A model generated the notes under the pieces. It had not been told where the DNA came from. It searched no databases and saw only the letters and a program-made list of their open reading frames with translations. From Trypanosoma brucei (taxonomy: Eukaryota), in the NCBI GenBank assembly GCA_000002445.1, contig CM000208.1, positions 3,104,001 through 3,168,000 of the forward strand: a DNA stretch of 64,000 nt, given 5' to 3'. Below are positions 1 to 34,823 of this stretch, piece after piece; positions within the stretch are counted from its first letter, which is position 1, and every line of letters begins with the position of its first letter. The translations under genes and the position numbers were made by a program.

Positions 1-393
1 CTTCGTTTGGACCGAGTTATTGACGTGCTGGAGGAAGGCGGGGACGGCACAGGCACTTCTGGTAGCGACCGCGCGTCAACAGTCATCGAGCTGAGTGAAT
101 CTGCGCAAGCGATTGCTTCTTCCCTGCTGTCTCTACTGGGGACCCTGACACCCGCACAACGCCACAGGACGCTTATGCTCTTCTGTGAACGCTGGCGCGT
201 CGCACTTCCTCGTAGCTTGGGCGCCGTATGGGACGATGACGGCTGTCGTGAGGTTATACGGCGCGTCGCCGCAAAGGTTGGTCACGTTGTAGATTTTCAT
301 TCACTGGGAACGAGTGAGCGCTCGTCAAGCACGTTGTCAAGCGCATCGGTAATTATTATCCCCAATCGGACCACGGATTTTGATAAGTTTTAA
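1..393 (+). CDS. Probable 3' end of a plus-strand protein-coding gene, 5'-truncated by the window edge. The frame is open from position 1 to the stop at 391-393.
   Basis: The ORF-track ORF at 7-393 begins on a TTG and stays in frame back to base 1 (ctt cgt), so it is open to the window edge. The amino-acid composition looks protein-like rather than low-complexity. No recognisable domain. Confidence 0.35.
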   Translation, partial: LRLDRVIDVLEEGGDGTGTSGSDRASTVIELSESAQAIASSLLSLLGTLTPAQRHRTLMLFCERWRVALPRSLGAVWDDDGCREVIRRVAAKVGHVVDFHSLGTSERSSSTLSSASVIIIPNRTTDFDKF

Positions 394-1129
394 GGGTTTT
401 GGGGGGTTAATGGCACAACAGGAGCCCGAGTCACGTGCCAATACGCCCTCCCGAGCAAAACTCTTTGCCAGATGTAAAGTGGCTTTGTTGGTTTTCCACT
501 CTCCGCCGGGTGTCTTGTTTTGTTTCTATTAGCTAGTGCCATTATAAAAAAATTTGTGGTGAAAACGTTTTTTACAATTTCCTCCCTCCCTATGGACAGA
601 TATTTTAATAAATAGGAACTAACACATGTGCTTACTAACAAAAGTTATGTTGTTGTGCTGGTATCTGAGCGTAGTTGTTGCGCACATATGCGCTAATGGG
701 TTATCGACCTCTCCCGTATTCTACGTTATGGGAGGGGGGGGGGTTTGGTCTTTTGTGTTTTTCCCTGCAGTTGGTACTTAAGCATCATTATGTAACCATG
801 CGCCAAGGAAATTCACCTCCGGCACTGCTAACAAACCTATTTAGGTTACATTAGTGGTAAATATTTTTTTTTTTCAAGTAATAGTGAACCTCTTTTTTCG
901 AAATATTTTCTTAGCAGCATGCATGTCTTATGGGGCGAGCGCTCAACAACGTCTCCGGCGGTGAAATCTTATTTTTTTTTCGTTCCCGATAGCCTGATGG
1001 CCTTAACAAACAAGAGAGAGTCTCTGTCACCCTTTCTTACTTACGGTACCCGTCCCTGTGCTTCGTCAGTGACGTCGCGGTAGCTACACCTGCAACTTTC
1101 AATGGAGAGATTTCCTGCAGGCTGTCGTG

Positions 1130-1185
1130 TACTTTTTCCCTTTTGCTTTCTCTTGTTTTTTTTTTCCGTCCACAACGCACAAAAG
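1130..1185 (+). promoter_or_regulatory. Plus-strand polypyrimidine tract followed by AG (ctttttcccttttgctttctcttgtttttttttccgtccacaacgcacaaaag). Candidate polyadenylation/SL-acceptor signal for plus-strand transcription downstream of the 1-393 gene fragment.
   Basis: Read directly. The strand orientation is opposite to the polypyrimidine tract at 4796-4845. Confidence 0.35.
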
Positions 1186-1519
1186 TGGGATTGGGTTTTG
1201 TGGTGATGACACCACCCCAGTACTTTAGCGGAACATGTTGAGCGTATGAAAACTAAAGCTTATGGGAAAATATCTCATGTGATGCCAGTCGTGCCAACGT
1301 GAGTCGGAGACCAACGTCTCCACGCTACTTGGAGAGACTGAGAATCACTGGCGTACCATACCTGCAAAGCCTCGGGGTGTGCGCTAGTGTTTTATCGGTA
1401 TGATCGCATGCTGCAGGATGCGACAGTTTATTTCTGCCCCCTGTGTCGGGTGCGTGCTCCCCACAGTCCTGGTTAGTGGGGCGAGCAGCTACGATGTTAA
1501 GTGAAAAAAAATTTTAATT

Positions 1520-1591
1520 GATGGCGGAAAAATGGCCGGATGTCGTGCAACATAACAGTAACACACAGCATCGGGCCATTTTTCCGCCATC
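1520..1591. repeat. Perfect 18-bp inverted repeat (gatggcggaaaaatggcc / ggccatttttccgccatc) with a 36-nt spacer. A 10-bp palindrome cggctagccg follows at 1593-1602.
   Basis: Checked base by base. 1520-1537 is the exact reverse complement of 1574-1591. Predicted strong hairpin in DNA or RNA. Confidence 0.95.
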
Positions 1592-3957
1592 GCGGCTAGC
1601 CGTGTGAATACATGGTTCCGCTCACATTTACTAACCCCGAGCGGAGGTGCTTGCTGCCACACGGCTTCAGCCTGCAGGAGATGGGTAGTGTATTATAATT
1701 GTTGTATCCGAAGCACTGAGAGCTGTGCAATGCAAACCTTGTTGGTTGATATTTACACTTGTTGATGGGATTTTCATGCGCGAACCTTCTCCTCATTCGG
1801 ATGAAATTTTCTTTCTTTTAGTCGTGTGGACACGTCTTAACAGTCTTTCGTTGCAAGTCTACCCAGCTCTTTCTTTCCTTTTGTCGTTGTTTACCTGCGA
1901 TTCAAAAAGAATGTGTACCTGAAGAAAAATTATCATGTAATCATTTCATCGAGTGTGTGGTGTGTTATCCCCAAAGCTTGTTGCTTGACGTCGCCGCTAC
2001 CCAGTTGGCACATCGCCCTCCCTTCGTATCACGCCTCACTAACAGGGTCAAGTGGGTGTGTTTTGGTTATGTTTGTTTCGAACTGTGAGGACACAATTCC
2101 ACTCGATTAGAGGCGTTTGTGGAGGGCAACTGTTGGTGCTGTCGTCCACTCACCAAATGTACTTCAGTGAAGCCACTTACTCAGGCGGTAATTACGCTAA
2201 ATCTGTATTTGTTTCTTGTTTTGACCCATCGCGGAGAAATGCCGGTTTGGGGGGAGGGGAGAGGGGCAACACGTGAAGTGCTCCTCGAAGGAGGTCGGTG
2301 GGAAAAACAGAGTGAATGGGAAAAGGGCAGTTGGAAAAGCTCCCCCGAGTGGAACGCCGGTTATGAATGGTGGGAGCAGGTGTATGGACTCGGTTGCTAA
2401 AAGAAGCCAGGGGAAAGGCTTGCCGCAAGGAGTGGATCTCTCAAAGAAGGAAAGGATACACGCTGGTGCCGAAGAAGAGAGCTCCGTTTAGGGAACAAAA
2501 AGGAACAAAGTGGATGTGCAGCGTCCACTCTCTCCGTGGCCTTCCGTTTGTTGAAATTAGTGGGGTATCGGTGGGCATTGCCGACACGTACGGTACATTT
2601 TATCTGCTGACTTCACTTTCACTGAGACAGTTGCCACCTACAGTGCTGACGGTGGGGCCAGTTGAGACACCAACACCGACATTGGGAACACCTGTGTGAA
2701 CTCTAATTTCCCCCCTGTTGTCGATCCCACAGTTGGTATCAGGGAAAATAATATATTCGTTCTCGTGGGAAGGTGTAGCTCTTCCAGTAAGCATTGGACA
2801 TGGAAACATTACGGTGAAAACTGGGATATACTCATGTACAATGGTACTGAAAAAGAAAGCAGGATCTGGTATGCCAGTCGTAACCGTAAAGTGGAACAAA
2901 CCCCAAAAATTGAAATATCTTTTACCAGCGCTGCTTCCCCTTGGAGATAAATCTCCATTACGGTTCCTCGGTGGTGCAGGAAGCGCGGCCAGCACATCAA
3001 GTGATCCGCTTGCCTTCCCCACGTACGCGAAGAACACACGGAGGCATACAGCTGCAAAGATGTTGTATTAGGTTGGCGATGGCAAAATGTGGCCCCTTGC
3101 CGTAGGTGAGACGCCCGTTGGTGTGATGGGGACTTTTGTTTCTCGGTGAAATAGATTTCTTAATGGTAGGACCTGCCCGGAATACCGCACGATGCTCGAG
3201 TCGAAAGGCGTTGGTGCAACGTGGAATGAGCTGCTTGGAACTGTGCCCAGCGCGGTTGGTAACTCACCAAACCATAGACGACCCGGAAACACCGAGAGGA
3301 CCATCATATTAAACGTTGAAGACGTTCTCGTGATCTTCTTTACTCGGCCGAAAACACGAGGGGGACTCCGGCGGCGTGATCGCCCCCGCCCATGGCCAGC
3401 GAATGGCAGTCGGACATATACCTCGCGACATTGAATAAATTCCTTATATTTCTTTCTTCTATGTGAACGGCAGATCGCCCACCTGCTCGAATGAACAAAA
3501 CTGCCACAGAAGTTCTCACCATTTACCTTGCACGCCCTGTGGGCAAATTCGAGGTTGTCAAGTCTACGGTGAGGTTATGGAACTAACAAAGTAAACTGCT
3601 GTGCGGTACGTGGCCTTCCGTGACGGAATCCCTGCGCCGCCTGCACCGTCAGTTTGCTCGGAGGCCCCCCTGGTGTAAGAGTGTGGATTGATGATCTTGA
3701 CACTGTTGTATAGTTGCCAGCCGTTATTGTGGGGAAAGGAAAAGCAGTTTCAAACGAGCGAACCGTCACATGGCGAGCGCGGCAGTGATGTTGCACGTGC
3801 ACGCCCTCATCCTTAGCCAAAGGTGTTTTTTTACGCGCTGCTTCCGTTTCGGGAAACCTCACGAGGGCTGCAGCTCGAGATTTTTATTTGGCATACTTCG
3901 ATGATTTCCCACAACCTTTGCACACCAATTTGGTAAATACGGGAGGTACGGGGGCCG

Positions 3958-3960
<3 letters not shown>

Positions 3961-4003
<43 letters not shown>
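3961..4003. repeat. (AC)21 dinucleotide microsatellite.
   Basis: Read directly: 43 nt of uninterrupted acac... Confidence 0.95.
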
Positions 4004-4004
<1 letters not shown>

Positions 4005-4379
4005 CAACCATAGCTTTTAAAGGAGTAGGTGTAAACGATACATCAACAGAATTTTTGTTTTGCTTGGGAAGTGCCACTTTAGGGGATGGGGAACAATTTA
4101 TGGTCGATGATGAGGCTTCCCGGGCATTTTGGAAAAGAAGGATGGAATTGCTCAGGGTCTGGTGGTTAAAGTTTTGCAACGGGAGTGTGCCGAGCCCCTT
4201 CCCACAACTTTTTCCTCACTCGAGTGAGTGGCCCGACTTTTACGTGTCGTCTCCCGGTTGTTTCGGTGGCGATGCTTCTGAATGTTTTCAGTCTAATGAA
4301 CAGGAAGAAGGAGCCGTGCCCCTCAGTAGGAAAGGTGGCGTACGGTGGATCATTTCGCACAGCATTGGAGGGCTTCGGA

Positions 4380-4401
4380 TGTGTGTGTGTGTGTGTGTGT
4401 G
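4380..4401. repeat. (TG)11 dinucleotide microsatellite, complementary in sense to the (AC)21 tract ~380 bp upstream.
   Basis: Read directly: tgtgtg... 22 nt. Confidence 0.95.
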
Positions 4402-4795
4402 AAATCCTTCCCATACTGCAGGGATAAAAAAGGGTTTCCCGGATTCTATCCTCTTGTCTGTGTTTCCCGATGTCGCGGCAGACCCCTTTTAGGCTGCTAC
4501 CGTGGATTTTACATGCAGTAGGGCTTTGCTGAGAGAAGGTGCGCGGGTAGGTCAAAAGAAAAAGACAAAAAACGTAGGGAAAAGTGATCATTTCGCCAGC
4601 GTCTGAAAAGAAAATCCCCACTTTACCAATTTTTCTAACGGCGAGGGGCTTCACCACGAATAATTTTATAAGCGCAAGTTCGTGCGTCGCCGGTGTCAGG
4701 GGAAGTGGGCTTCATCAGGGCAAACGGCAGTGACACCAACATTCGCTCGCTCCTGTACAAAAAGAAAATGAATAAGGTGCAAAAGGTAATAAATC

Positions 4796-4845
4796 AAAAG
4801 AAAAAAAAGGAAAAGGGCGAAAAGGAAAAAAAACGAAACGTCTTA
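4796..4845 (-). promoter_or_regulatory. Long polypyrimidine tract on the minus strand (purine-rich on plus: caaaagaaaaaaaaggaaaagggcgaaaaggaaaaaaaacgaaacg), ~0.85 kb downstream of the stop of the 1251-aa gene. Candidate polyadenylation / trans-splicing signal.
   Basis: Read directly. In trypanosomatids, polypyrimidine tracts direct coupled polyadenylation of the upstream mRNA and SL addition to the downstream one. Confidence 0.4.
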
Positions 4846-5670
4846 ACTAAGTTGGTGTACAAGACACGAAAATTTATATCGTCCCTTCAATAAGGAGCGG
4901 ACTTCATGTTGAACGCCCAGGCACACACAATCTCCCCGTCAGTTGTGGTGGGAAGCGACTAGAGAGGACGCGGTGTGCCAAACTTTCTCGTCACCACTGG
5001 ACCCCGTAGTGCTGTAACTGTGTTTTCGTGTGTGCAGAGGGGAGGATCATATTCTGCCGCGTCGGTACGACACATGGCGCCGCATTTTGTTAGTGTCAGA
5101 AGGACACGCCCTTCGTGGCAGTAGCCGCGGATGGCGGACGGTTTTCTTTTTTCTCCCCCCCCCCTGCACATCTCTACCCCTCATGCGCAAACCTTTCCAT
5201 CGTTAATTTGCCGTCATGGTACAACATTCCCCCAATCGTTCCGGGCGGTCGTTCTAATACACAACGTAGTCCCAATCCTAACCCTTTTCCGGTTCCAACA
5301 TTTTGATGCAATATTTTTTTCCGCATGGAGTAATGACCCTTTCCTCGCAGCACCATGCATTTCCGTTACACAGTTCCCATGTTTCCACGCAGTCGCAGTG
5401 TGTGCGACCACCGCTTCTGAGTTCTCTGTTTAACAAACAATATAATGCACATGCCCACCGAGTAAAACACCCCGCAACCAGCCAAAAGGGGGAAAAAAAG
5501 ACGTCCGCTACTCGATTCCCGCTTCTTCACCGCACTCACCTTTACGAGCGCAGCATGGTACGGAGCGTACACGGCACTCACCATCCTCGATGGCGTTTGC
5601 GGCGTCTCTGGAGCTGGCTCCGGTTGCAATAACCCTTTTTTTTCCCCTGTCACCCACGTTCTTCGCTATG

Positions 5671-8600
5671 TTAGCTGTGAAACCAGCGGACGAGGTATTC
5701 GGGATAACTTCGCGTACCGGGTGACGGCACCGACAATTCCCACTGACCTGCCGCGGGCCCGCTGCCTCTCACCATCGCGCATCGCTGCACAACAAAGAGG
5801 CCGGTGTCAGGCCCCGCTGACGGTACGCAACATGTTTCCATTTCGTCCTCATCACTCACCACAGCCCCCAGTGCGACGCGGAACACGATTGCCCACGTGG
5901 CCCACGGGTTGTCATCGTTGCGTGTTTGTTTTTTGGCCTCCATCCACGGCGGAACAAATGCAAACCGGCATTTTTCTTCTTTAGTCCCCTCGAGACATAT
6001 TTGCCATGCCTCCTCCTCGTCCTTGCAGTTGTACCACAAGAATCGTTCGTTGACCTCACAATCGTCGCTGCACGGTAAGAAGTGAGGTTGCTCTCTCAAC
6101 GCCACCGGCACTGAAAAAGAACTACACCCGCGCGCCAGCACCAGTTGCTGGCGATATTTCCAATATGTTTCCCACAAGTAAATGTTACGGTTGAGAAACA
6201 CCGCGGTGCCCTGAGGTGATCGGTGCATGAGAACGCGGTTGTCTGGAAACAACGAGACAGGCCCCATGTTTTTTTGCGCTGTCCAATACGGCGGGTAGGA
6301 AACCTCCTTGGTAAAGAGGTATTGACGTTCGTCACAATCATAGTTTACTTTGATAAGGCGCCGTACGAAGCCTCTTGCATCCAGCAGACTCCAACGAGGC
6401 TCCAGTTTACCCGTCAAACGGTCAGCGACTTCCAGAAACACATTAAACATTTCCCTTATCTGTTGCTCGGCCTGGCCGCATCCAGTCACCACACCTGAAG
6501 AGGCCCTGTCGTCACTAGCGTTGCGATGGGGAGAAGATTTGGTCTGCGGCAGGGTGCCACGAAGGTATGGGAGTACTTCAGCGTGTAGAGTCACTCCAAA
6601 GTCAGCAGCGTCATCCTGAGCGGTTTTCGTCCCGTATTTGTGCACCTTCAGGGAGTTTGAAAAAAATCCGAGCGTCGTATTTCCAAAGTCATCATGTGTG
6701 AAGTTGGACATGCAGATATCGCCATGGGTTACCTGGCACGAGTGAATGTCAATAATAGCCTGCAAGGCGCCGTGGAGCCATCGAACCCCGTGTTGTTTGA
6801 TTCTTTTTAAGATGTCCTGGGGTGAGCTAAATCGCACTTGTGTTCCGCCCCGGGGTAGATGAAAATATATTTGATTTGTGTGCTCATCACCGAATACTTC
6901 AATTGCAGAGGTCACGCGACAGGACGCGCACGTCTCCTGAAGTCGCAGCTCACGTTCCATGAGGGTTTTGAATACCTTGGTTGTTTGTACCGAAGACTCA
7001 TTTTCATATTTTGGGAATGTATACCGCTTGAGCCAGCATGGTGTAACGGTGCCGCTGATGGGATCCACATACTCAGCGCACAACAGGGCAAACTCGATTT
7101 CGCTGATCTCTTTTCCATCTTTTAACACCATCCCCTGATAGGTTGCAGGTTTGTGGGGTTCCAATACATTTCGGGGCTCAACCACAACGTGCTTGTAACT
7201 CACTAAGGTACGTTCACGCTCGTATTTTACATAGCGCCGAATTTCACATTTTTGGTGCGCGCAACGGGCGCAGGAGGAAGGCAGCAATTTGAAGAACCCA
7301 ATATTTTCTGGCAGGTGCACACTGTAGATATTGTATAACTCGCACGTGGCGGCGTCTACCTCCGTAAACACTTGGTGAAAAAGCAAACTTTCCTTTGTGT
7401 CCCCTTCACGTTGTTCGCTCGACTTCAATTTTTCCTTCTTAGCGGTAGATTTGGAGGTTCGCCCCCCTACGTCATGCGTTGCGTGCCGCAGTGACGCAAC
7501 ACTCTTCATTTTGCTGTCCCGCGCTCTGTAATATTCCTTGCACGTTTCCCGTAGTCGCTGGTGCGTATCAACAGCGTGTGCTCCCGAAAGCGCAAACCCC
7601 GCAATAAGCCCGATGATTCTCACCTCATCCGCGAATTCCAGCGTCCTCTCATCTTCTGTTTCATCAGATTCTTCCAACGAATCGCTGTCGCCGGTGCAGA
7701 GTGCTTGTATCGCGGTCTGTATGTCAAACAGCGCACTGAGTGTCTGTCCCGTCCCCGCCACCACTGTTACATCAGCAGTGGCACCGGTGTGCTGCTTGAA
7801 AAAGCTGTGGGCGAGGCTTTGCGCGGTTTTCCACAACTCAAATGCCTCGATCAACTTGCCGGTCACGTGCTTTGGAAAGCAAGTTGCGACAATTGTCCTC
7901 CTTAGATCCTCACGCTTTGCCACCGCCTCACATTTTGTGCACCACCGGAAATCACAGCAGGAACGCTCGACGGGTAAAACGGTCGTTGCGGTATCCCTCG
8001 CAGCGACTTCATCCGCGATGTGAACAAATACATGCATTCTGATGAACATGTGCACGTTGACCTTGAGCCGCGACCATCCCTCACAATCCCTGTGCAGCTG
8101 TTTCAACCACGAAAACGGAACTGCCTCGGTTGTGAGTTGGTAACAACGCTGAATAGCGGCTAGTACTACACAGATGCTGTGCTGCGTCGTCGAAGCTTTC
8201 GTTTCCGAAACTGCGTATTCCTCATCAGCGACACTTTCATCCGGCTCGTCCACGCTAAGTTCCTCCAGTTCGCTCAACTCCAGTGGGGTCCCCGCTTCTA
8301 ACGCCAAGAGTCCACTGTCACACAGCTCTTGGGCTTCTTGTGAAGAGTTCTTTCCAGTACGAAACAGCGATTGCAGAAAGCTCACAACGGCATTCTTCTT
8401 TCGTTTTCGGGGGCGCCGCGCACCATCTGTGTGGATTGCTTCCTCATTTTCTTGACACAAACGCCGGCAATCCTCATGCCAGCCCTGGCAGAAGGCGTAG
8501 ACCTCAAAGTCATGGTTCAGCACACCCGTCAACTCACCGCTCCCGCCTCTGTCGGGGTGGTGCACGAGCAAAAGTGCTCTGTAAACCTTTCTGCACTCAT

Positions 8601-9426
8601 TGCGTTCGTTTACAAAACCCCACTTCCGCTGCAGCTGAACTATCGCAAAATGCTGGAAGGATATAGGCATCAACGCAATATTAGCCGAGGCACGGTACTC
8701 GCTAATATCCGTGAGACCCTCCCACCCGCATGCCACTCGGTAATCTCTGTAGTGTTGGACGATACGGCATGTCTCAAAGGAGAGCAGGCAATGCTGTGGT
8801 TCGAGTAGTTCCTCGAAGCGCCTCCGGGCCCCCTGTTCGTTACGGGGGTACCCGTACTGTCTCCTAAGCTTAATTTTAAGAATTAGACGATCAACATGCC
8901 GAGTGAGTAGCGTTACAACGCAGAAGTTTAAAGCAACAGAAAGCACTGTAGTTGCAATAACTTGCCCAACCACTGGAATGGAACCCAACCCGATCAGCGA
9001 TCCAATGGCGTATCCAATCGCCAAGCCAGTGGCTGCGGTTCCAACCTCCTTGCCAATGCGCAACGCCAAATCCGTACGATCCATTGGCAATCCCAATACG
9101 TTAAGCGCCCCACGCCGGTAGTCGCTGACAGCGCGGAATGACTCGTATGCAGCGACCGCTGCCGCCGCTATCGGGTTGGCCACAGTTGCCGAAAAGACAA
9201 GGTTGGTTGTGATGCTCACACCCGTGCGAGCAGCACCATCAACAATATCTCCCCTCTTCAAAGCAAGAACCGACTCGTGGGAGTTTGTTGGGGAAACGGT
9301 GTGATCCGATGCATTCTGAGGTGTAAGCGACAGTTGAATGTTTTCCTGCGTCGGGTCCTCCTCTCGTCGTTTTGATTCATCATCATCAACAATAATAAAC
9401 TCACTGGCATCTTCCTTATCCGTCAT
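5671..9426 (-). CDS. Large multidomain protein (1251 aa). It has hydrophobic transmembrane segments (about aa 131-175), a DnaJ/J-domain with an HPD motif (about aa 280-300), and a C-terminal region with alpha-kinase-like motifs.
   Basis: One ATG-initiated 1251-codon ORF. The N-terminal stretch GLAIGYAIGSLIGLGSIPVVGQVIATTVLSVALNFCVVTLL is hydrophobic. KVYRALLLVHHPDRGGSGE matches the J-domain helix II/III plus HPD loop. Near aa 900-935, THGDICMSNFTHDDFGNTTLGFFSNSLKVHKYG resembles the TDPQI..DFGDGNLG..FF..H.CN segment of alpha-kinases such as eEF2K, but the catalytic Gln of that motif is not conserved. Confidence 0.8.
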   Translation of the reverse strand: MTDKEDASEFIIVDDDESKRREEDPTQENIQLSLTPQNASDHTVSPTNSHESVLALKRGDIVDGAARTGVSITTNLVFSATVANPIAAAAVAAYESFRAVSDYRRGALNVLGLPMDRTDLALRIGKEVGTAATGLAIGYAIGSLIGLGSIPVVGQVIATTVLSVALNFCVVTLLTRHVDRLILKIKLRRQYGYPRNEQGARRRFEELLEPQHCLLSFETCRIVQHYRDYRVACGWEGLTDISEYRASANIALMPISFQHFAIVQLQRKWGFVNERNECRKVYRALLLVHHPDRGGSGELTGVLNHDFEVYAFCQGWHEDCRRLCQENEEAIHTDGARRPRKRKKNAVVSFLQSLFRTGKNSSQEAQELCDSGLLALEAGTPLELSELEELSVDEPDESVADEEYAVSETKASTTQHSICVVLAAIQRCYQLTTEAVPFSWLKQLHRDCEGWSRLKVNVHMFIRMHVFVHIADEVAARDTATTVLPVERSCCDFRWCTKCEAVAKREDLRRTIVATCFPKHVTGKLIEAFELWKTAQSLAHSFFKQHTGATADVTVVAGTGQTLSALFDIQTAIQALCTGDSDSLEESDETEDERTLEFADEVRIIGLIAGFALSGAHAVDTHQRLRETCKEYYRARDSKMKSVASLRHATHDVGGRTSKSTAKKEKLKSSEQREGDTKESLLFHQVFTEVDAATCELYNIYSVHLPENIGFFKLLPSSCARCAHQKCEIRRYVKYERERTLVSYKHVVVEPRNVLEPHKPATYQGMVLKDGKEISEIEFALLCAEYVDPISGTVTPCWLKRYTFPKYENESSVQTTKVFKTLMERELRLQETCASCRVTSAIEVFGDEHTNQIYFHLPRGGTQVRFSSPQDILKRIKQHGVRWLHGALQAIIDIHSCQVTHGDICMSNFTHDDFGNTTLGFFSNSLKVHKYGTKTAQDDAADFGVTLHAEVLPYLRGTLPQTKSSPHRNASDDRASSGVVTGCGQAEQQIREMFNVFLEVADRLTGKLEPRWSLLDARGFVRRLIKVNYDCDERQYLFTKEVSYPPYWTAQKNMGPVSLFPDNRVLMHRSPQGTAVFLNRNIYLWETYWKYRQQLVLARGCSSFSVPVALREQPHFLPCSDDCEVNERFLWYNCKDEEEAWQICLEGTKEEKCRFAFVPPWMEAKKQTRNDDNPWATWAIVFRVALGAVVSDEDEMETCCVPSAGPDTGLFVVQRCAMVRGSGPAAGQWELSVPSPGTRSYPEYLVRWFHS

Positions 9427-10248
9427 TTTTTTCCTCGACCCACCCTTATGATCCCAACCACGGATAACTTTAAAGCTTCTTCTTTCCCTTTGGAGGCCCT
9501 TCCCGAGGGCAGCGGTGAGGCAGACGACGTATGGGGGAATCGGATATTAAAAAAACGGGAAGAGGAAAATGACGACGCTCGGTTGAACAATGGGATGATA
9601 CTTCACACCATAAATTTTTGCAATCTTCAAAAACCTCTCCGATATTCATCACGTATTTCTTTGCCTTCACACAAAAGCGGCGTACCGAGCACTCGAGTGT
9701 TCCACATGTATCTGAACTTTTGACTAAGTGGTAGCCCCAATTTATTGAGGAGCCAAACGATAGAACCCGTGAGGTAAAATTGAGTGAAAAAAACAATGGA
9801 AAATGAAGCTGCGCCGTGAAACCGGCAGTCCCTGCTGCTGGCGGGGGCCCGCACCACCTCCTGCGGCAACGCACGTGATATAAATAACGGAAGGAAGGAG
9901 GGGGGATGGAAAGATGTAACAACGCAAAAAAAAAAAAAGAAAAAAAAAGCATATGTAAAAATTAAAAAAACTCGTTTTGCGCAGAATAAAATCATCCCAC
10001 TGCAAAAACCACGTGCCAATTAGAGCGGTACGTGAAGTTTAAGTTTGGCTGCCCACCATACATGATATAACACACCAAGAGGGGTGCCAACAGGAAACCC
10101 ATGGGGACTGCAACAATAATTATGCTAAGAGAAAGCACCACCACCAGCACCTCCGTTTCACTTCCAGTAAGAGTGGTAGTTGTCTTGCATCGTTTTTTTT
10201 TTTAATTATGGTTAATATTGCCTTTTTGCATCGATGGGAAGTAGAAGA

Positions 10249-12771: not shown

Positions 12772-13885
12772 TCTTTTCTTCGGTCTACTTGACCCCTCTC
12801 CCGCGTTATTTATGACCGCTTAAACGTTGGAAAATCTCAAAAAAAAAAAGACTCGATAAAAGACCCACCAGCATGCATTTGCACTGGCTTTATTCAGATG
12901 ATATTCCCAGTAAACAAAAAGTTATGATAAAACTAGGACCGGGCAACTAAAACGTCACTAAATGGGCACGGAACTCAATTCACACTCAAACCAGGTCCAT
13001 GTAGCGTCAAATTGTATCGACTTTATCAGCGCACGTCTGTGTGATCGGTGACACAATTGAAATCTACACAATCATGGTAACGCGTGTCACCTGCTTCAAC
13101 CAAAGCCACTTCTCCCAATTCAACACCATCGTTGCTTCGGGTGGAAACAGGGGAGAAAAAGCGATTTCCATATGTGATAAATTGGTGTTTGTCCTTCACA
13201 GTTTTTTCGTCCCTCACCCCCCCCCCAAATAAAAAAACAACAATTTTTAGCAGTGTGATCATGAAAAAACAAAAAAAACACACTTGCGCTCGTCACTACA
13301 TCATGCATGCCCGCACTGACTTCTTCTATCCCCCCTTTTTTATTTCACACGTATATTTTTAAAGGGGTGCGCGAGCATAGACAACTTTGCGTATGGTTAT
13401 TTTGGTACGCTTTGATGATGAGTGTGTTCAGATGATCGGCGCCCTCGCCCTACCTGCCATACATATACCATTGGTACTTATCCATACATGTATGTCTTTG
13501 CTTTTCTACGTATCATTTCGTTCGCACATGCCCTTGCAGAGATGTGAGGAAAAAGTGTTTGAAGTCAGGTGGGAATTGCTTGTGGTGAATCTTTCGGAGA
13601 AACACGCAAAAAATAACAGTGATGATAATTGTTCTAACATTCACATGGAAACATGTGGTTTAGCCAACGAAGAGGTGTGCGCGCTCGAGGGGCGCTGAAA
13701 ATGTTCTCCAACCCAGTGCCCTGGCCCATGACGTCACATTGCCATCACCAAATTTTCTAGAAGGAATGCAATAGACAAAGAGCAACTAAAAAAAAAAAAA
13801 AGCAAACAAAAAACAAAATATAAACACATTACGTTGTAGAGAAGACGAAATTAGCATTGTATTCGATTTTCGCAGTCTAATATAT

Positions 13886-17140: not shown

Positions 17141-18346
17141 TCATATTTGTTTCCAGAGTTCTCGGTCACTTCCGAGCTTCGTTAACTCAAATACTGACGA
17201 GAAAACCACGCCACCCACAACTGATGCGCCTACGTTTGCAACAGTACCCTTAAACAACCCTCGCCATCCCTCCGCTGATAAAAGGTCACGTACTACAGTA
17301 CGCAAAGAGGTGTACTGGGCGCCCTTGACAGCTCCAGAAACTGTAGGGAGAGCCTGCATCCTCGTATGTAGCACATCAACGGGATTAAATAAAAACGATG
17401 TTACGCAACTTGCGACCACACCCGCAAAGGCGTTCAGTGCGGGGTTGTCTGTTGGGGAAAGAAGCCAATTTTGCTGCCATGGTGACTTTTTCTCCCCAAC
17501 GAGGCTCATCTCCCGCTCCCAGCGCGAGAGGGTTGGTTCTGCCATTGTATATAGAATAGCTTTTGACCTGCTGTAGAGTGCCCACCACACGCCACTTGCG
17601 GGGAGTGTCATGATACCGGGCAGAAGCCCAGCGTAGAGACCACGCAATTTGTATCGAGCAGTGCCCCAACTTGTACCGATGCCGGGTTGCTTGTAGAGAT
17701 TACTGACCTCCCGTAAAGTGTCACGGAGTGATCCGTAGGTGTTGCTGCTACTCATGCCATACCCCGCAGTCATTTGGCGGTTGCACACAACCACAATGGG
17801 AGTTACAAGAAGAAGTGATGCTAGCTCCCCCGCCATGCCACCCACAGCTGCTGAGAAACTGTTGGTCCGGAAATCACGGCCGCGCTCAGGAGCAACGTTC
17901 GCGTCGGCGAATGCGACATCCAGTGCCTCTTTCGTCCATTCCATCGTGTGGAGATAGACCAGTTCGCCTATAAGGTTTCCTATCATTGCCGCCCCAACAC
18001 CACGATAAATAGCCCGAAGACCCCTCACTTTCTTACTCGAGTTGTTGCCACCGCCCACTTCACCACGGTATGCAGAGGCTATGATGGAGAATACGGATGG
18101 AGGTTTCGCTTCCCTTGTGATGCGCTTACGGGATATGGCAAGGTAAAGTGGATGCAGCAGCAACGTTCGTAGCATTGCGTTAAAGCTGACTAACACAAAC
18201 CATGTATCTTTGTGAAGATCAGAGAAACTGCGGTTCACTGCATTTCTAGACAGTGACGTTGGTGACGGTGCGCTAGACGGATACTCAACCTTTGATGAAC
18301 TACCAGATGTAATGTCGTCAACGGCAGCGATGTTGGTGATACTCAT
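17141..18346 (-). CDS. Mitochondrial carrier family protein (401 aa, with an N-terminal extension).
   Basis: Repeated carrier signatures such as PVDVLHTRMQ (Px[DE]xx[KR]xR-like), glycine-rich transmembrane helices (GLYAGLLPG, GVGAAMIGNLIGE), and a tripartite arrangement. Confidence 0.7.
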   Translation of the reverse strand: MSITNIAAVDDITSGSSSKVEYPSSAPSPTSLSRNAVNRSFSDLHKDTWFVLVSFNAMLRTLLLHPLYLAISRKRITREAKPPSVFSIIASAYRGEVGGGNNSSKKVRGLRAIYRGVGAAMIGNLIGELVYLHTMEWTKEALDVAFADANVAPERGRDFRTNSFSAAVGGMAGELASLLLVTPIVVVCNRQMTAGYGMSSSNTYGSLRDTLREVSNLYKQPGIGTSWGTARYKLRGLYAGLLPGIMTLPASGVWWALYSRSKAILYTMAEPTLSRWEREMSLVGEKKSPWQQNWLLSPTDNPALNAFAGVVASCVTSFLFNPVDVLHTRMQALPTVSGAVKGAQYTSLRTVVRDLLSAEGWRGLFKGTVANVGASVVGGVVFSSVFELTKLGSDRELWKQI

Positions 18347-33384: not shown

Positions 33385-34542
33385 CTAAAGCTTCGTGACG
33401 TCTTTTCTTGCCCACACCTCCACACGCCCGTCCAGACCTGCTGTGGCAAAGAGCGGACGTTCCGTATCCGACAGCTTCTCAGCAGCACCAGGTCGGGGAT
33501 TCAGAGCAGTCAAACAACATACAAAATTAATAGTATTTTTGTGACGGCTACGCTCCTCCTCAAACATGTTTACTCTACCGACGCGCGCGTCCCCCTCAAA
33601 CTTCGCACGGGCTAACTGTTGGGTCGTTACTATCTCCTTTGCATGAGCCACAACCCACTTCCCTGTCATCCTCCACCCCCGTTCTTCCTCGAGTGCGAAA
33701 ATTACAGGGTAATAATCAAATCCACCACCAACTAGTTGATCCTCGTCAATAAACGCAAGCGCCCTCAGTGGCAGTATCGTCATATTTATTGTGTGTAGTG
33801 TTACTGCCTCCTTTCCTCCCTCCACTATTTCGGAATAAACGACATCGAGGACTGATACGCGGCTATCGTGTGTAGACACTGCGAGACGCTGACCCGAGGG
33901 CGTCCATGTTACGGCGTGCACCCACGCACTGAATTTCTTCTCAAAGTAAACATAACCAAACGGCCTGCTTTTGGTTGTATCAAGTTTCTTCATATATGTT
34001 GAAACGAGTAGTAGGTTACCGTCTGCACCACCTGATGCAAGAAGGGCATCGTCTGAAGGATGCGGGGCTAGCGCGGTGACAGTACTTGTGTGGCCGGTCA
34101 ACAAACGACATATCCACCACTGTTCACTACACTCAAAGCGTCCAACGGCGATGTTGGCGTCCGCAGACCCTACGTATATCTTGGACCCTGAGAAATTCCA
34201 CGCACAGCAAGTCAACCCACGTTTCACGCCAACGTCAAGCAACACCATCTGCGGCTTCCACTTCTCCTTACTATCACGGTACCACACGTACGCCATACGA
34301 TCGTGCGCACACGAAAGAATTTTGCCTGTAGTCCCGTGCCATGCGGTAGCGGACACTGATTGATCGTGCTGTTCCAGGGTAGCTTCAACTCCCCAAGTTG
34401 AGCAGTCGCTGATGTCATCGCACCGCACAATAACAAGTTGGTGGTTGTTTGGGGAAAAAATAGCCTCCGAAAAGTCACGGTTGAAGGAGAAAGCAACGAC
34501 CGGAGCCCCCAAAACGGTGTTTTTTTCTTTTTGAGGTCTCAT
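33385..34542 (-). CDS. ARPC1: Arp2/3 complex subunit ARPC1 (p41), WD40 protein, 385 aa.
   Basis: FSPNNHQLVIV...LEQHDQSVSATAWHGTTGKILSCAHDRMAYVWY lines up with ARPC1 (AICPNNHEVHIY...[32 protein letters not shown]). PFGYV...AWVHAVTWTPSGQRLAVSTHDSRVSVLD lines up with PFGQL...[28 protein letters not shown]. The ORF-track ORF (to 34794) has an 84-codon non-homologous leader. The start was set at the Met of MRPQKEKNTVLG (cat at 34540-34542), giving the usual ~385 aa. Confidence 0.8.
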   Translation of the reverse strand: MRPQKEKNTVLGAPVVAFSFNRDFSEAIFSPNNHQLVIVRCDDISDCSTWGVEATLEQHDQSVSATAWHGTTGKILSCAHDRMAYVWYRDSKEKWKPQMVLLDVGVKRGLTCCAWNFSGSKIYVGSADANIAVGRFECSEQWWICRLLTGHTSTVTALAPHPSDDALLASGGADGNLLLVSTYMKKLDTTKSRPFGYVYFEKKFSAWVHAVTWTPSGQRLAVSTHDSRVSVLDVVYSEIVEGGKEAVTLHTINMTILPLRALAFIDEDQLVGGGFDYYPVIFALEEERGWRMTGKWVVAHAKEIVTTQQLARAKFEGDARVGRVNMFEEERSRHKNTINFVCCLTALNPRPGAAEKLSDTERPLFATAGLDGRVEVWARKDVTKL

Positions 34543-34823
34543 CGACGGTGCGCACACCGAGCAATCTCTCGGTGAAGCTCGGGTTACACCACCTCCTCTT
34601 CTGTTCCTATTACTGCTACCCTCTTCTACGGAGGGAAAGGCGGGTAAGCCCTGAGGAGTTACAGGACCGATACGTAAAAAAAAAACGGGAACAACAGGGG
34701 GTGCTGGTATCGATAAGTTGGTCAAAAGCATAAGACAACGGTACAAACCACAGGGGAATAGTGCTAAACTTCGCCACTGCTCTGAGAAGCACATATTGTT
34801 ACAAAATATATCGATGAGTATAG

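Follow-up and report, generated by a model that had tools for sequence, protein, structure and literature searches.

Does the 5277-bp gap at positions 394-5670 of the analyzed DNA hold the site at which two converging Pol II transcription units terminate? The window, a stretch of 64,000 nucleotides, corresponds to v4 positions 3,104,001-3,168,000 of chromosome 10 of T. brucei TREU927, and ten of its proteins match exactly; the gap lies at v4 3,104,394-3,109,670. On the left, a plus-strand ORF open at the window edge stops at 391-393, and on the right a run of 19 large minus-strand ORFs extends from 5671 to 63926. This arrangement was described in the initial annotation, whose coordinates are all correct. 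The gap was also called unusually long. This holds relative to the spacers between the window's own minus-strand ORFs (median 566 bp, maximum 1938 bp, n=18). For convergent units elsewhere in T. brucei, published windows range from 2.8 to 22.6 kb with flanking genes included, which is no direct measure of gap length (Tschudi 2012, PMC3447711).

Table 1. Features in and beside the gap (window coordinates)
Feature	Position	Strand	Basis or remark
Last 130 codons and stop of receptor adenylate cyclase GRESAG4 (ACP4)	1-393	+	phmmer, codon score
Convergent strand-switch region	394-5670		between Tb927.10.13040 (+) and Tb927.10.13070 (-)
GRESAG4 probable 3'UTR	394-1127	+	predicted
Polypyrimidine tract 1128-1173, AG 1184-85	1128-1185	+	spliced-leader acceptor of Tb10.NT.141; tract scan
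Tb10.NT.141, 596-nt processed novel transcript	1186-1782	+	Kolev 2010, Table S7
72-nt hairpin	1520-1591		within Tb10.NT.141; 18-nt perfect arms, pairing imperfect out to 28 nt
Second polypyrimidine tract and AG	1858-1909	+	tract scan; 76 nt downstream of Tb10.NT.141 3' end
Unannotated frameshifted trans-sialidase family pseudogene (catalytic domain and linker helix)	~2478-3592	+	
ORF Tb10.389.0410 / Tb927.10.13050, "hypothetical protein, unlikely", 76 aa	2841-3071	+	inside pseudogene
(CA)22	3960-4003		length-polymorphic
ORF Tb10.389.0400 / Tb927.10.13060, 141 aa, "T. brucei spp.-specific protein"	4166-4591	-	
(TG)11	4380-4401		length-polymorphic; inverted relative to (CA)22, 376 bp away
Polypyrimidine tract 4840-4788, AG 4754-53	4753-4840	-	tract scan
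Tb927.10.13070 probable 3'UTR	4841-5670	-	predicted from place between stop codon and polypyrimidine tract
Tb927.10.13070 (Tb10.389.0390, EAN78681.1, 1251 aa)	5671-9426	-	exact protein match; first in coordinates of the minus-strand run

The left boundary is a real gene end, as had been supposed, by both codon usage and homology. Frame 1 of positions 1-390 has a codon score (log2-likelihood per codon) of 0.145, whereas the remaining frames score -0.18 and -0.38; 130-codon chunks of real genes have a mean of 0.14 (sd 0.05). The product matches the C-terminal tails of ~1240-aa T. brucei receptor adenylate cyclases (phmmer E 6e-31), which are GRESAG4 both by name and by Pfam architecture, and shares 98.5% identity with the T. 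b. gambiense orthologue over residues 1080-1209 of the latter. Because of its place in the gene order between PKAC3 (13010) and UGP (13130), the gene is identified as Tb927.10.13040 (Tb10.389.0430, EAN78678.1, 1209 aa). The sequence after its stop codon is T-rich on the plus strand (AT skew -0.11 to -0.23) and lies upstream of splice signals. Because polyadenylation in trypanosomes is coupled to downstream trans-splicing, this segment is probably the GRESAG4 3'UTR. The plus-strand arm is thus part of a transcription unit, as proposed, but not of a long one: the unit has GRESAG4 as its only gene, plus two small transcripts that are non-coding.

The plus-strand polypyrimidine/AG signal is present where it was first placed, and it precedes Tb10.NT.141, whose 5' end at v4 3105186 falls at window position 1186 (offset 3,104,000, anchored on two annotated ORFs). 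This transcript had been published, but was overlooked in the initial annotation. It is of low abundance, at 0.47 RNA per cell (Kolev 2010, Table S7). Its longest ATG ORF is 34 aa, it is missing from the homology and peptide tables of the same study, and it is probably non-coding. The hairpin within it, which is unique in the window, and both microsatellites were confirmed as structured elements. The hairpin RNA has an MFE of -49.9 kcal/mol (z -8.9). Other T. brucei strains carry its central 36 nt in inverted orientation: the sequences from T. b. gambiense and T. b. equiperdum are identical at 70/72 positions to the reverse complement, compared with 50/72 in direct orientation. The second plus-strand tract probably served as the splice acceptor of the former trans-sialidase gene, and probably also sets the Tb10.NT.141 poly(A) site.

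No intact gene was found within the gap. Among stop-to-stop ORFs of ≥60 codons, none combines length with gene-like codon usage: those of ≥100 codons score -0.09 to 0.09, and the sole high-scoring ORF (0.151; 4672-4890) is a Lys-rich, low-complexity frame of 73 codons. The gap's minus strand has no Pfam match. A tRNA scan of 394-5670 found none, and an Rfam scan returned 0 families at the gathering score, with sub-threshold matches to generic hairpins at the E-value level only. A Pol III gene, which such regions were said often to hold, is absent here. The claim that the gap contains no credible gene is borne out with regard to intact genes, but the gap is not featureless: in addition to the long non-coding RNA, it carries a pseudogene that had been missed.

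This pseudogene matches Pfam BNR_3 with 35.3 bits (cut-off 27; E 1e-8), with a further frame also matching. It aligns to residues 31-344 of T. cruzi trans-sialidase 1S0I (E 1.7e-22), with residues 52-151 and 373-403 matched in a different frame. The damage amounts to 3 in-frame stops (tblastn) and at least 3 frame changes. The relic is common to T. b. gambiense and T. b. equiperdum, and is absent at the corresponding loci of the other species compared. The gap is thus long and gene-free because it holds the remains of what was the second gene in the plus-strand unit, a trans-sialidase family member with many frameshifts and stops.

If the two annotated ORFs Tb927.10.13050 and Tb927.10.13060 were real small genes, the gap would consist of ordinary spacers around them. 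The annotations of TREU927 and T. equiperdum include both, and Tb927.10.13060 is preceded by a minus-strand polypyrimidine tract and AG. However, Tb927.10.13050 is a fragment of the pseudogene. The frame of Tb927.10.13060 runs through (TG)n and is broken by microsatellite indels; across three subspecies it encodes 141, 79 and 139 aa. Its codon usage is non-coding (score -0.02). In T. b. gambiense, the CA tract has a 23-nt deletion and the TG tract has changes of 2 and 4 nt. Neither ORF is detectably transcribed in procyclic RNA-seq (Kolev 2010, Table S2). It had been reasoned that minus-strand mRNA across the gap would speak against a strand switch, and these annotated ORFs yield no detectable transcript. 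Tb927.10.13060 is probably no protein gene, and it is extremely unlikely that the gap is merely spacers around small genes.

On the right, the minus-strand polypyrimidine signal is likewise at its described position, where it probably sets the poly(A) site of Tb927.10.13070. From ~5000 onward, the GC skew has the sign seen in minus-strand genes.

Published genome-wide tables already contain the two unit ends. One Pol II unit ends at Tb10.389.0430 (GRESAG4, +), the opposing minus-strand unit from Tb10.05.0270 to Tb10.389.0390 ends here, and a new unit of "Divergent" type begins at Tb10.389.0470; of the ten +/- junctions on chromosome 10, the gap is the last (Kolev 2010, Table S14). The nearest convergent strand-switch region (cSSR) has been placed 5262 bp from Tb927.10.13070 and 8607 bp from Tb927.10.13090 (Schulz 2016, S6 Table, PMC4721952). 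Because 8607-5262 equals 12771-9426, the gene at the gap's right edge can be identified as Tb927.10.13070. In cells that lack both base J and H3.V, antisense RNA over Tb927.10.13070 rises from 0.028 to 0.477 RPKM (17-fold, adjusted P 0.010), and that over Tb927.10.13090 from 0.018 to 0.113 RPKM (6-fold, adjusted P 0.035), according to the same table. Tb927.10.13060 is among the cSSR-proximal genes, and in one sheet of S2 Data its log2 RPKM is -1.99 in wild type, which is low but not zero, and 0.74 in the double null, a signal that may be sense or antisense (Schulz 2016, PMC4721952). The supplements of Reynolds 2016 (PMC4721609) and Kim 2021 have no entry for genes of this locus.

Because plus-strand read-through into Tb927.10.13070 is mutant-dependent, the site acts as a barrier in wild type. 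H3.V, H4.V and base J reportedly mark Pol II termination sites in T. brucei. This genome-wide rule and the mutant phenotype together suggest that all three marks are present at the gap. The unit ends and the antisense rise agree with the proposal that two converging units terminate here. The gap is a genuine convergent strand-switch region, correctly recognized but ordinary, and Pol II very probably stops in it.

DCL2-dependent siRNAs occur at every convergent unit surveyed (Tschudi 2012, PMC3447711). The gap is most likely the siRNA locus CTU43 of that study, judging from order and from the 190-kb spacing to CTU42, with coordinates given in v5 and the v4-to-v5 shift estimated; both come last among the convergent junctions of chromosome 10. 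CTU43 has 5255 siRNA reads, equal between strands, of which 4.9% are left in dcl2-/-, and they are DCL1-independent (Tschudi 2012, PMC3447711). Unlike the gap, CTU43 spans 22.6 kb, four times longer, and must include GRESAG4 and neighboring genes. Because of this width, siRNAs could arise partly outside the gap, and may mostly do so, for example over GRESAG4.

The width and equal strands of CTU43 would also be compatible with antisense transcription across the entire GRESAG4 unit, as expected if the minus-strand unit had no real stop here. It would then continue from the 1251-aa gene through calpain to Vps16, crossing the gap as a spacer and reading GRESAG4, which would have its own promoter, in antisense. 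The ancestral order of these three genes is co-directional, and low antisense transcription does occur at convergent units (Tschudi 2012, PMC3447711). However, the mapped minus-strand unit stops at Tb10.389.0390 and restarts at Tb10.389.0470, and no minus-strand transcript of Tb10.389.0400 was detected (Kolev 2010). Moreover, the sole read-through found is on the plus strand and needs the mutant. Continuous minus-strand transcription is therefore quite improbable.

Under termination in the gap, Pol II arriving from the right would make the long minus-strand unit, with its last mRNA probably polyadenylated near 4900-5000. The very short unit made by Pol II from the left would comprise Tb10.NT.185, GRESAG4 and Tb10.NT.141, and this polymerase would reach at least ~1800-1900. 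In the intervening ~3 kb, both polymerases would be halted by chromatin dependent on base J and histone H3.V. Leftover transcript overlap would probably form double-stranded RNA, which the nuclear Dicer DCL2 would convert to siRNAs.

T. brucei ORC1/CDC6 sites and early origins sit at transcription-unit boundaries. The gap might therefore serve mainly as a replication origin, ORC-binding site or other chromatin boundary, with termination secondary, a role compatible with the termination explanation. That location of origins speaks for such a role; no direct support was found at the gap. However, the gap holds no centromere-type repeat arrays or AT-rich blocks, and it changes at a roughly neutral rate, with 2.1 substitutions per 100 bp versus 0.55 in flanking genes. 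The documented phenotype is one of termination (Schulz 2016, PMC4721952), and a different main role has very little probability.

As a termination site, the gap resembles other T. brucei cSSRs: gene ends converge, two mapped Pol II units finish there, removal of base J and H3.V lets transcription run into the opposing unit, and no intact gene is present (Schulz 2016, PMC4721952; Reynolds 2016, PMC4721609). It differs from a typical one in nothing essential, having a one-gene arm, no Pol III gene and a decayed-gene spacer. One- and two-gene Pol II units occur elsewhere, and a short chromosome 7 unit, from Tb927.7.7480 (TbSA B2 trans-sialidase) to Tb927.7.7470 (ACP3 adenylate cyclase), similarly lies between a divergent and a convergent switch and likewise combines a cyclase of the GRESAG4 type with a member of the trans-sialidase family (Kolev 2010, Table S14). 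The chromosome 7 unit starts with an intact trans-sialidase, whereas in the chromosome 10 unit the cyclase comes first and the trans-sialidase is a dead gene.

The origin of the short arm is suggested by synteny. In T. b. gambiense the order is Vps16(-), calpain(-), a 4.9-kb gap, GRESAG4(+), a 5.26-kb gap and the 1251-aa gene(-). In T. cruzi, T. theileri, T. rangeli, L. infantum and T. vivax, a single strand carries the 1251-aa gene, calpain and Vps16 next to one another. The lone GRESAG4 gene thus lies in reverse between genes adjacent in relatives, and the entire plus-strand unit is a lineage-specific insertion into the spacer between two otherwise co-directional genes. Synteny-break and insertion sites in trypanosomatids reportedly hold retroelements and expanded surface-protein families. 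Unlike at synteny breaks, gene order at this locus is intact and the reversed insertion is merely added. Like such sites, the spacer holds either the GRESAG4 and trans-sialidase insertion, as in T. brucei, or retroelement sequence, which is a degenerate non-LTR retroelement in T. vivax and retroelement traces in L. infantum.

The gap at 394-5670 is bounded by two genes whose 3' ends face each other. On the left, a plus-strand frame that is open at the window edge stops at 393, and on the right lies the first of 19 large minus-strand ORFs, a run that reaches 63926. This convergent layout, recognized in the initial annotation, is shared by T. b. gambiense. The gap measures 5277 bp; by comparison, the spacers among the 19 minus-strand ORFs have a median length of 566 bp, and the longest is 1938 bp. 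Each flank is the terminal gene of a mapped Pol II unit: Table S14 of Kolev 2010 lists a unit "Tb10.389.0430 -> Tb10.389.0430, +, Divergent" and, as its neighbors, "Tb10.389.0470 -> Tb10.389.1070, -, Divergent" and "Tb10.05.0270 -> Tb10.389.0390, -, Internal." The earlier view that two PTUs converge here is correct in that both units end at the gap, but the plus-strand "PTU" is a single GRESAG4 gene.

The left flank had been proposed to be a genuine gene end, and the evidence agrees with this assignment. Coding potential was scored with a codon-usage log-likelihood built from the 19 window genes, on which 130-codon gene chunks yield 0.14 +/- 0.05 per codon; bases 1-390 score 0.145 in frame 1 and strongly negative in the other frames. 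A word-indexed homology search with the 1-393 peptide gave no match, and an exhaustive phmmer search matched it to the extreme C-termini of ~1240-aa proteins (best E 6e-31) that have receptor adenylate cyclase architecture and carry the names GRESAG4 or ESAG4. The T. b. gambiense orthologue (1209 aa, 98.5% identity across the tail) has all the Pfam domains, with the periplasmic-binding-like domains, one cyclase domain and C-terminal tail of a receptor-type cyclase, of which the window holds the tail only. PDEA is Tb927.10.13000, PKAC3 is Tb927.10.13010 and UGP is Tb927.10.13130. Because the cyclase lies, by gene order, between PKAC3 and UGP, it is Tb927.10.13040 (ACP4).

The initial annotation found no credible gene in the gap and no tRNA by eye, and our scans bear this out. 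Gap ORFs of at least 100 codons have codon scores of -0.09 to 0.09, and only a short, Lys-rich ORF of low complexity scores high. Pfam had no match in the gap's three minus frames. ARAGORN detected no tRNA or tmRNA in the gap, and no Rfam family reached its gathering score there; at the level of E-values, only generic miRNA-like scores were obtained for a hairpin, far below the cut-offs. Pol III genes (tRNA, snRNA, 5S), which are frequent but not obligatory in convergent strand-switch regions (cSSRs), were thus not found in the gap. Neither the gap nor the hairpin behaves as a dispersed repeat, since neither has more than one copy in the window or in any locus fetched. Relative to T. b. gambiense and T. 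b. equiperdum, the gap carries 2.1 differences per 100 bp, compared with ~0.55 for flanking coding sequence and 1.3-1.45 for the next spacer, a pattern that points to neutral evolution.

Two ORFs are annotated inside the gap, Tb927.10.13050 and Tb927.10.13060. Both are among the ORFs for which Kolev 2010 detected no transcript, and neither shows the gene-like codon usage, frame conservation in close relatives and detectable mRNA expected of a protein gene. Codon usage in Tb927.10.13060 is non-coding. Indels in the microsatellite shift its frame, so that it measures 141 aa, 79 aa and 139 aa in three subspecies. In T. b. gambiense, the CA microsatellite of the gap is shorter by 23 nt and the TG microsatellite by 2 nt; in T. 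b. equiperdum, the TG microsatellite is shorter by 4 nt.

Locations of features in the window and, where a locus is named, in comparison loci
Feature	Position	Strand	Remark
Polypyrimidine tract and AG	1128-1173, AG 1184-85	+	Directly before 5' end of Tb10.NT.141
Tb10.NT.141, processed transcript	1186-1782 (3105186-3105782)	+	Kolev 2010 Table S7
Hairpin	1520-1591		Perfect 18-nt arms
Second polypyrimidine tract	1858-1892	+	Begins 76 nt past 3' end of Tb10.NT.141
Relic, T. cruzi trans-sialidase residues 31-344	2478-3425	+	E 1.7e-22
Relic, residues 52-151	2546-2848	+	Better alignment, in another frame
Tb927.10.13050 (Tb10.389.0410)	2841-3071 (3106841-3107071)	+	Kolev 2010 Table S2
Relic, residues 373-403	3500-3592	+	Linker helix
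CA microsatellite	3960-4003
Tb927.10.13060 (Tb10.389.0400), 141 aa	4166-4591 (3108591-3108166)	-	Traverses (TG)n; Kolev 2010 Table S2
TG microsatellite	4380-4401
1251-aa gene, Tb927.10.13070 (Tb10.389.0390)	5671-9426	-
175-aa ORF	~9450-9980	-	Directly upstream of 1251-aa gene
Tb10.NT.142	12935-13531	-	Between PhoD-like gene and 438-aa gene
Mitochondrial carrier	17141-18346	-
Arp2/3 41-kDa subunit	33385-34794	-
Hairpin counterpart, T. b. gambiense	L006 17814-17885
Hairpin counterpart, T. b. equiperdum	L007 17832-17903
Divergent spacer calpain(-)/GRESAG4(+), T. b. gambiense	L008 5107-10000
Non-LTR retroelement, T. vivax	L009 1262-5837		Opposite strand
Matches to T. vivax element, L. infantum	L005 17003-17194, 18260-18421		Same opposite strand

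Six-frame translations of the gap, with stops masked as X, were scanned against Pfam. The sole match is to BNR_3 (PF13859), the trans-sialidase catalytic domain, which is detected in two plus frames at 35.3 bits (cut-off 27). Segments of a T. cruzi trans-sialidase can be aligned with this region (see table). Toward the C-terminal lectin-like domain, only the linker helix is detectable, and nothing is recognizable past 3592. The relic has at least three frame changes and at least three in-frame stops, three of which are seen by tblastn (E 8e-24). With its reading frame broken in this way, it is a pseudogene rather than a member gene. Tb927.10.13050 (76 aa, "hypothetical protein, unlikely") is a piece of the relic, and the previously unannotated pseudogene therefore corrects this annotation. 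The "empty" stop region is, on inspection, a dead gene. The relic is also found in T. b. gambiense and T. b. equiperdum, and is absent from the loci of the other species. A non-LTR retroelement (ingi or DIRE) was also considered as a source of the gap sequence, but Pfam scans of six frames returned no reverse-transcriptase or endonuclease similarity.

Comparison with other trypanosomatids shows the setting of the single-gene unit. A calpain-like peptidase gene and then Vps16 come after the 1251-aa gene, on the same strand as it, in T. cruzi, T. theileri, T. rangeli and L. infantum; past Vps16, those fetched loci that extend so far have a protein kinase and a phosphodiesterase. T. vivax keeps this order and shared orientation. 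None of the calpain, Vps16, kinase and phosphodiesterase genes is inside the window. Against this conserved row, T. b. gambiense, in window orientation, has Vps16(-), calpain(-), a 4.9-kb spacer, GRESAG4(+), a 5.26-kb gap and the 1251-aa gene(-). Thus, one GRESAG4 gene has been inserted backwards in T. brucei, with a divergent switch on one side and a convergent switch on the other. The locus serves as a worked example of how a surface-protein gene inserted backwards in a conserved row forces stop and start regions around itself. Decay of a calpain, Vps16 or kinase gene was rejected as an origin of the gap, as tblastn revealed no trace of them there and these genes are intact further left.

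The orthologous spacer varies widely in length, from 0.4 kb in T. rangeli and 2.1 kb in T. theileri to 6.5 kb in T. cruzi and L. infantum and 9.9 kb in T. vivax. In T. vivax, the opposite strand of the spacer contains a non-LTR retroelement in fragments, with RVT_1 and zinc-finger ORFs; in L. infantum, the spacer has two weak, collinear matches to this element. T. brucei has the GRESAG4 and trans-sialidase insertion instead, for a total of 13.8 kb, and neither tblastn nor tblastx found remnants of the T. vivax element in its gap. Because a single spacer has such species-specific contents, it appears to be a site of recurrent or ancient insertion. On chromosome 7, a Pol II unit of two genes, Tb927.7.7480 -> Tb927.7.7470, appears in Table S14 of Kolev 2010; its members are TbSA B2, from the trans-sialidase family, and ACP3, a GRESAG4. 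The two families are paired there just as they are in ACP4 and the pseudogene, although in the opposite gene order. The two pairings may represent a duplicated cassette, which we offer as a parallel and not as a result.

The divergent spacer on the other side of GRESAG4 is 4.9 kb in T. b. gambiense and has three small annotated ORFs; its plus frames lack Pfam matches. By coordinates, Tb10.NT.185, a novel 1763-nt plus-strand transcript of Kolev, falls within the corresponding TREU927 spacer, just upstream of GRESAG4.

Published mutant data provide evidence that transcription terminates at the gap. In J-null H3.V-null cells, antisense RNA rises from 0.028 to 0.477 RPKM for Tb927.10.13070 (17-fold, adjusted P 0.010) and from 0.018 to 0.113 RPKM for Tb927.10.13090 (6-fold, adjusted P 0.035) (Schulz 2016 S6 Table, PMC4721952). 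The starts of these genes are placed 5262 bp and 8607 bp, respectively, from the nearest cSSR (PMC4721952). The difference of 3345 equals 12771-9426 in the window, which fixes the gene IDs, and the distances make window 4164, where Tb927.10.13060 has its 3' end, the edge of the cSSR. RNA antisense to these genes is plus-strand, and therefore comes from transcription of the GRESAG4 unit that reads through the gap. Thus, loss of base J and H3.V leads to read-through and to antisense RNA in the opposite unit. Together with the Kolev unit ends, these data support the initial reading of the gap as a convergent termination region. The mutant phenotype also suggests that H3.V, H4.V and base J are physically present on the region. 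In Schulz 2016 S2 Data, Tb927.10.13060 is among the cSSR-proximal genes, and one sheet, of sense or antisense values, gives it log2 RPKM of -1.99 in wild type, 0.00 in J-null and 0.74 in double-null cells (PMC4721952). The supplements of Reynolds 2016 (PMC4721609) and Kim 2021 have no entry for these genes.

DCL2-dependent small RNAs were reported at 49 of 49 convergent units surveyed (Tschudi 2012, PMC3447711). The siRNA-producing convergent transcription unit CTU43 (v5 3,163,700-3,186,300) is the last chromosome 10 entry in that study. It gave 5255 reads (2726 top, 2529 bottom), a number that falls to 4.9% of wild type in dcl2-/- cells, compared with 91% in dcl1-/- cells (PMC3447711). The gap is the tenth and last +/- junction of chromosome 10 in the Kolev table, and the CTU43-CTU42 distance of 190 kb matches the v4 distance to the previous junction, which is itself extrapolated from gene-ID spacing. 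By order and spacing, we infer that the gap probably corresponds to CTU43, which is defined in another assembly version and, at 22.6 kb, is four times as wide as the gap. The two siRNA-producing pseudogenes described by Tschudi 2012 (PMC3447711) are located elsewhere.

The two mapped units end at the gap, and the barrier between them requires base J and H3.V. Processing signals extend plus-strand transcription to at least ~1900 and minus-strand transcription to at least ~4750. Polymerases would stop in the ~2.9 kb between these points, which comprise the pseudogene and two microsatellites, and the chromatin marks would sit within the same stretch. Leak-through transcription would generate dsRNA that could be processed by DCL2.

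The polypyrimidine tracts, microsatellites and hairpin noted initially were all recovered at their reported positions. The two annotated ORFs of the gap fix the offset between Kolev and window coordinates, so that the window spans Tb927_10_v4 3,104,001-3,168,000; ten of the proteins it encodes agree exactly with T. brucei brucei TREU927 chromosome 10 entries. The offset places the hairpin inside the plus-strand transcript Tb10.NT.141 (596 nt, 0.47 RNA per cell; Kolev 2010 Table S7), whose longest ATG ORF is 34 aa. The hairpin, which occurs once in the window, has an RNA MFE of -49.9 kcal/mol (z -8.9). Relative to TREU927, T. b. gambiense and T. b. equiperdum carry the 36 nt between its arms in the reverse orientation: in both, the hairpin is identical at 70/72 positions to the reverse complement, versus 50/72 in direct orientation. 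This inversion produces 26 apparent substitutions in one 250-bp bin. It is a palindrome-flanked inversion polymorphism within Tb10.NT.141, a small structural difference that is easily testable.

A broader reading would make the short plus-strand unit, along with the chromatin marks, part of the stop mechanism, with the very stable hairpin of the spliced non-coding RNA Tb10.NT.141 as an entry point for the nuclear Dicer DCL2 that seeds siRNAs and repressive chromatin, and would make GRESAG4 and the trans-sialidase a mobile two-gene module, comparable to TbSA B2-ACP3 on chromosome 7, that creates strand-switch pairs where it lands. We regard this combination as highly improbable. The reference genome contains the locus, as do three published genome-wide data sets, so the gap is an already catalogued cSSR and, as a termination site, is nothing new. 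What this analysis adds is minor: the pseudogene, the one-gene nature of the plus-strand unit as revealed by comparison, and the hairpin flip.

Several observations concern the neighboring minus-strand genes. Directly upstream of the 1251-aa gene is a 175-aa ORF described as a "T. brucei spp.-specific protein" (T. b. gambiense CBH16483.1), which from ID order is presumably Tb927.10.13080. Another novel transcript of Kolev, Tb10.NT.142, is also 596 nt and is present at 1.74 RNA per cell. The Arp2/3 41-kDa subunit is annotated as 469 aa in TREU927 and 385 aa elsewhere in T. brucei subspecies, and the mitochondrial carrier as 344 aa and 401 aa, respectively; both disagreements are probably start-codon misannotations.
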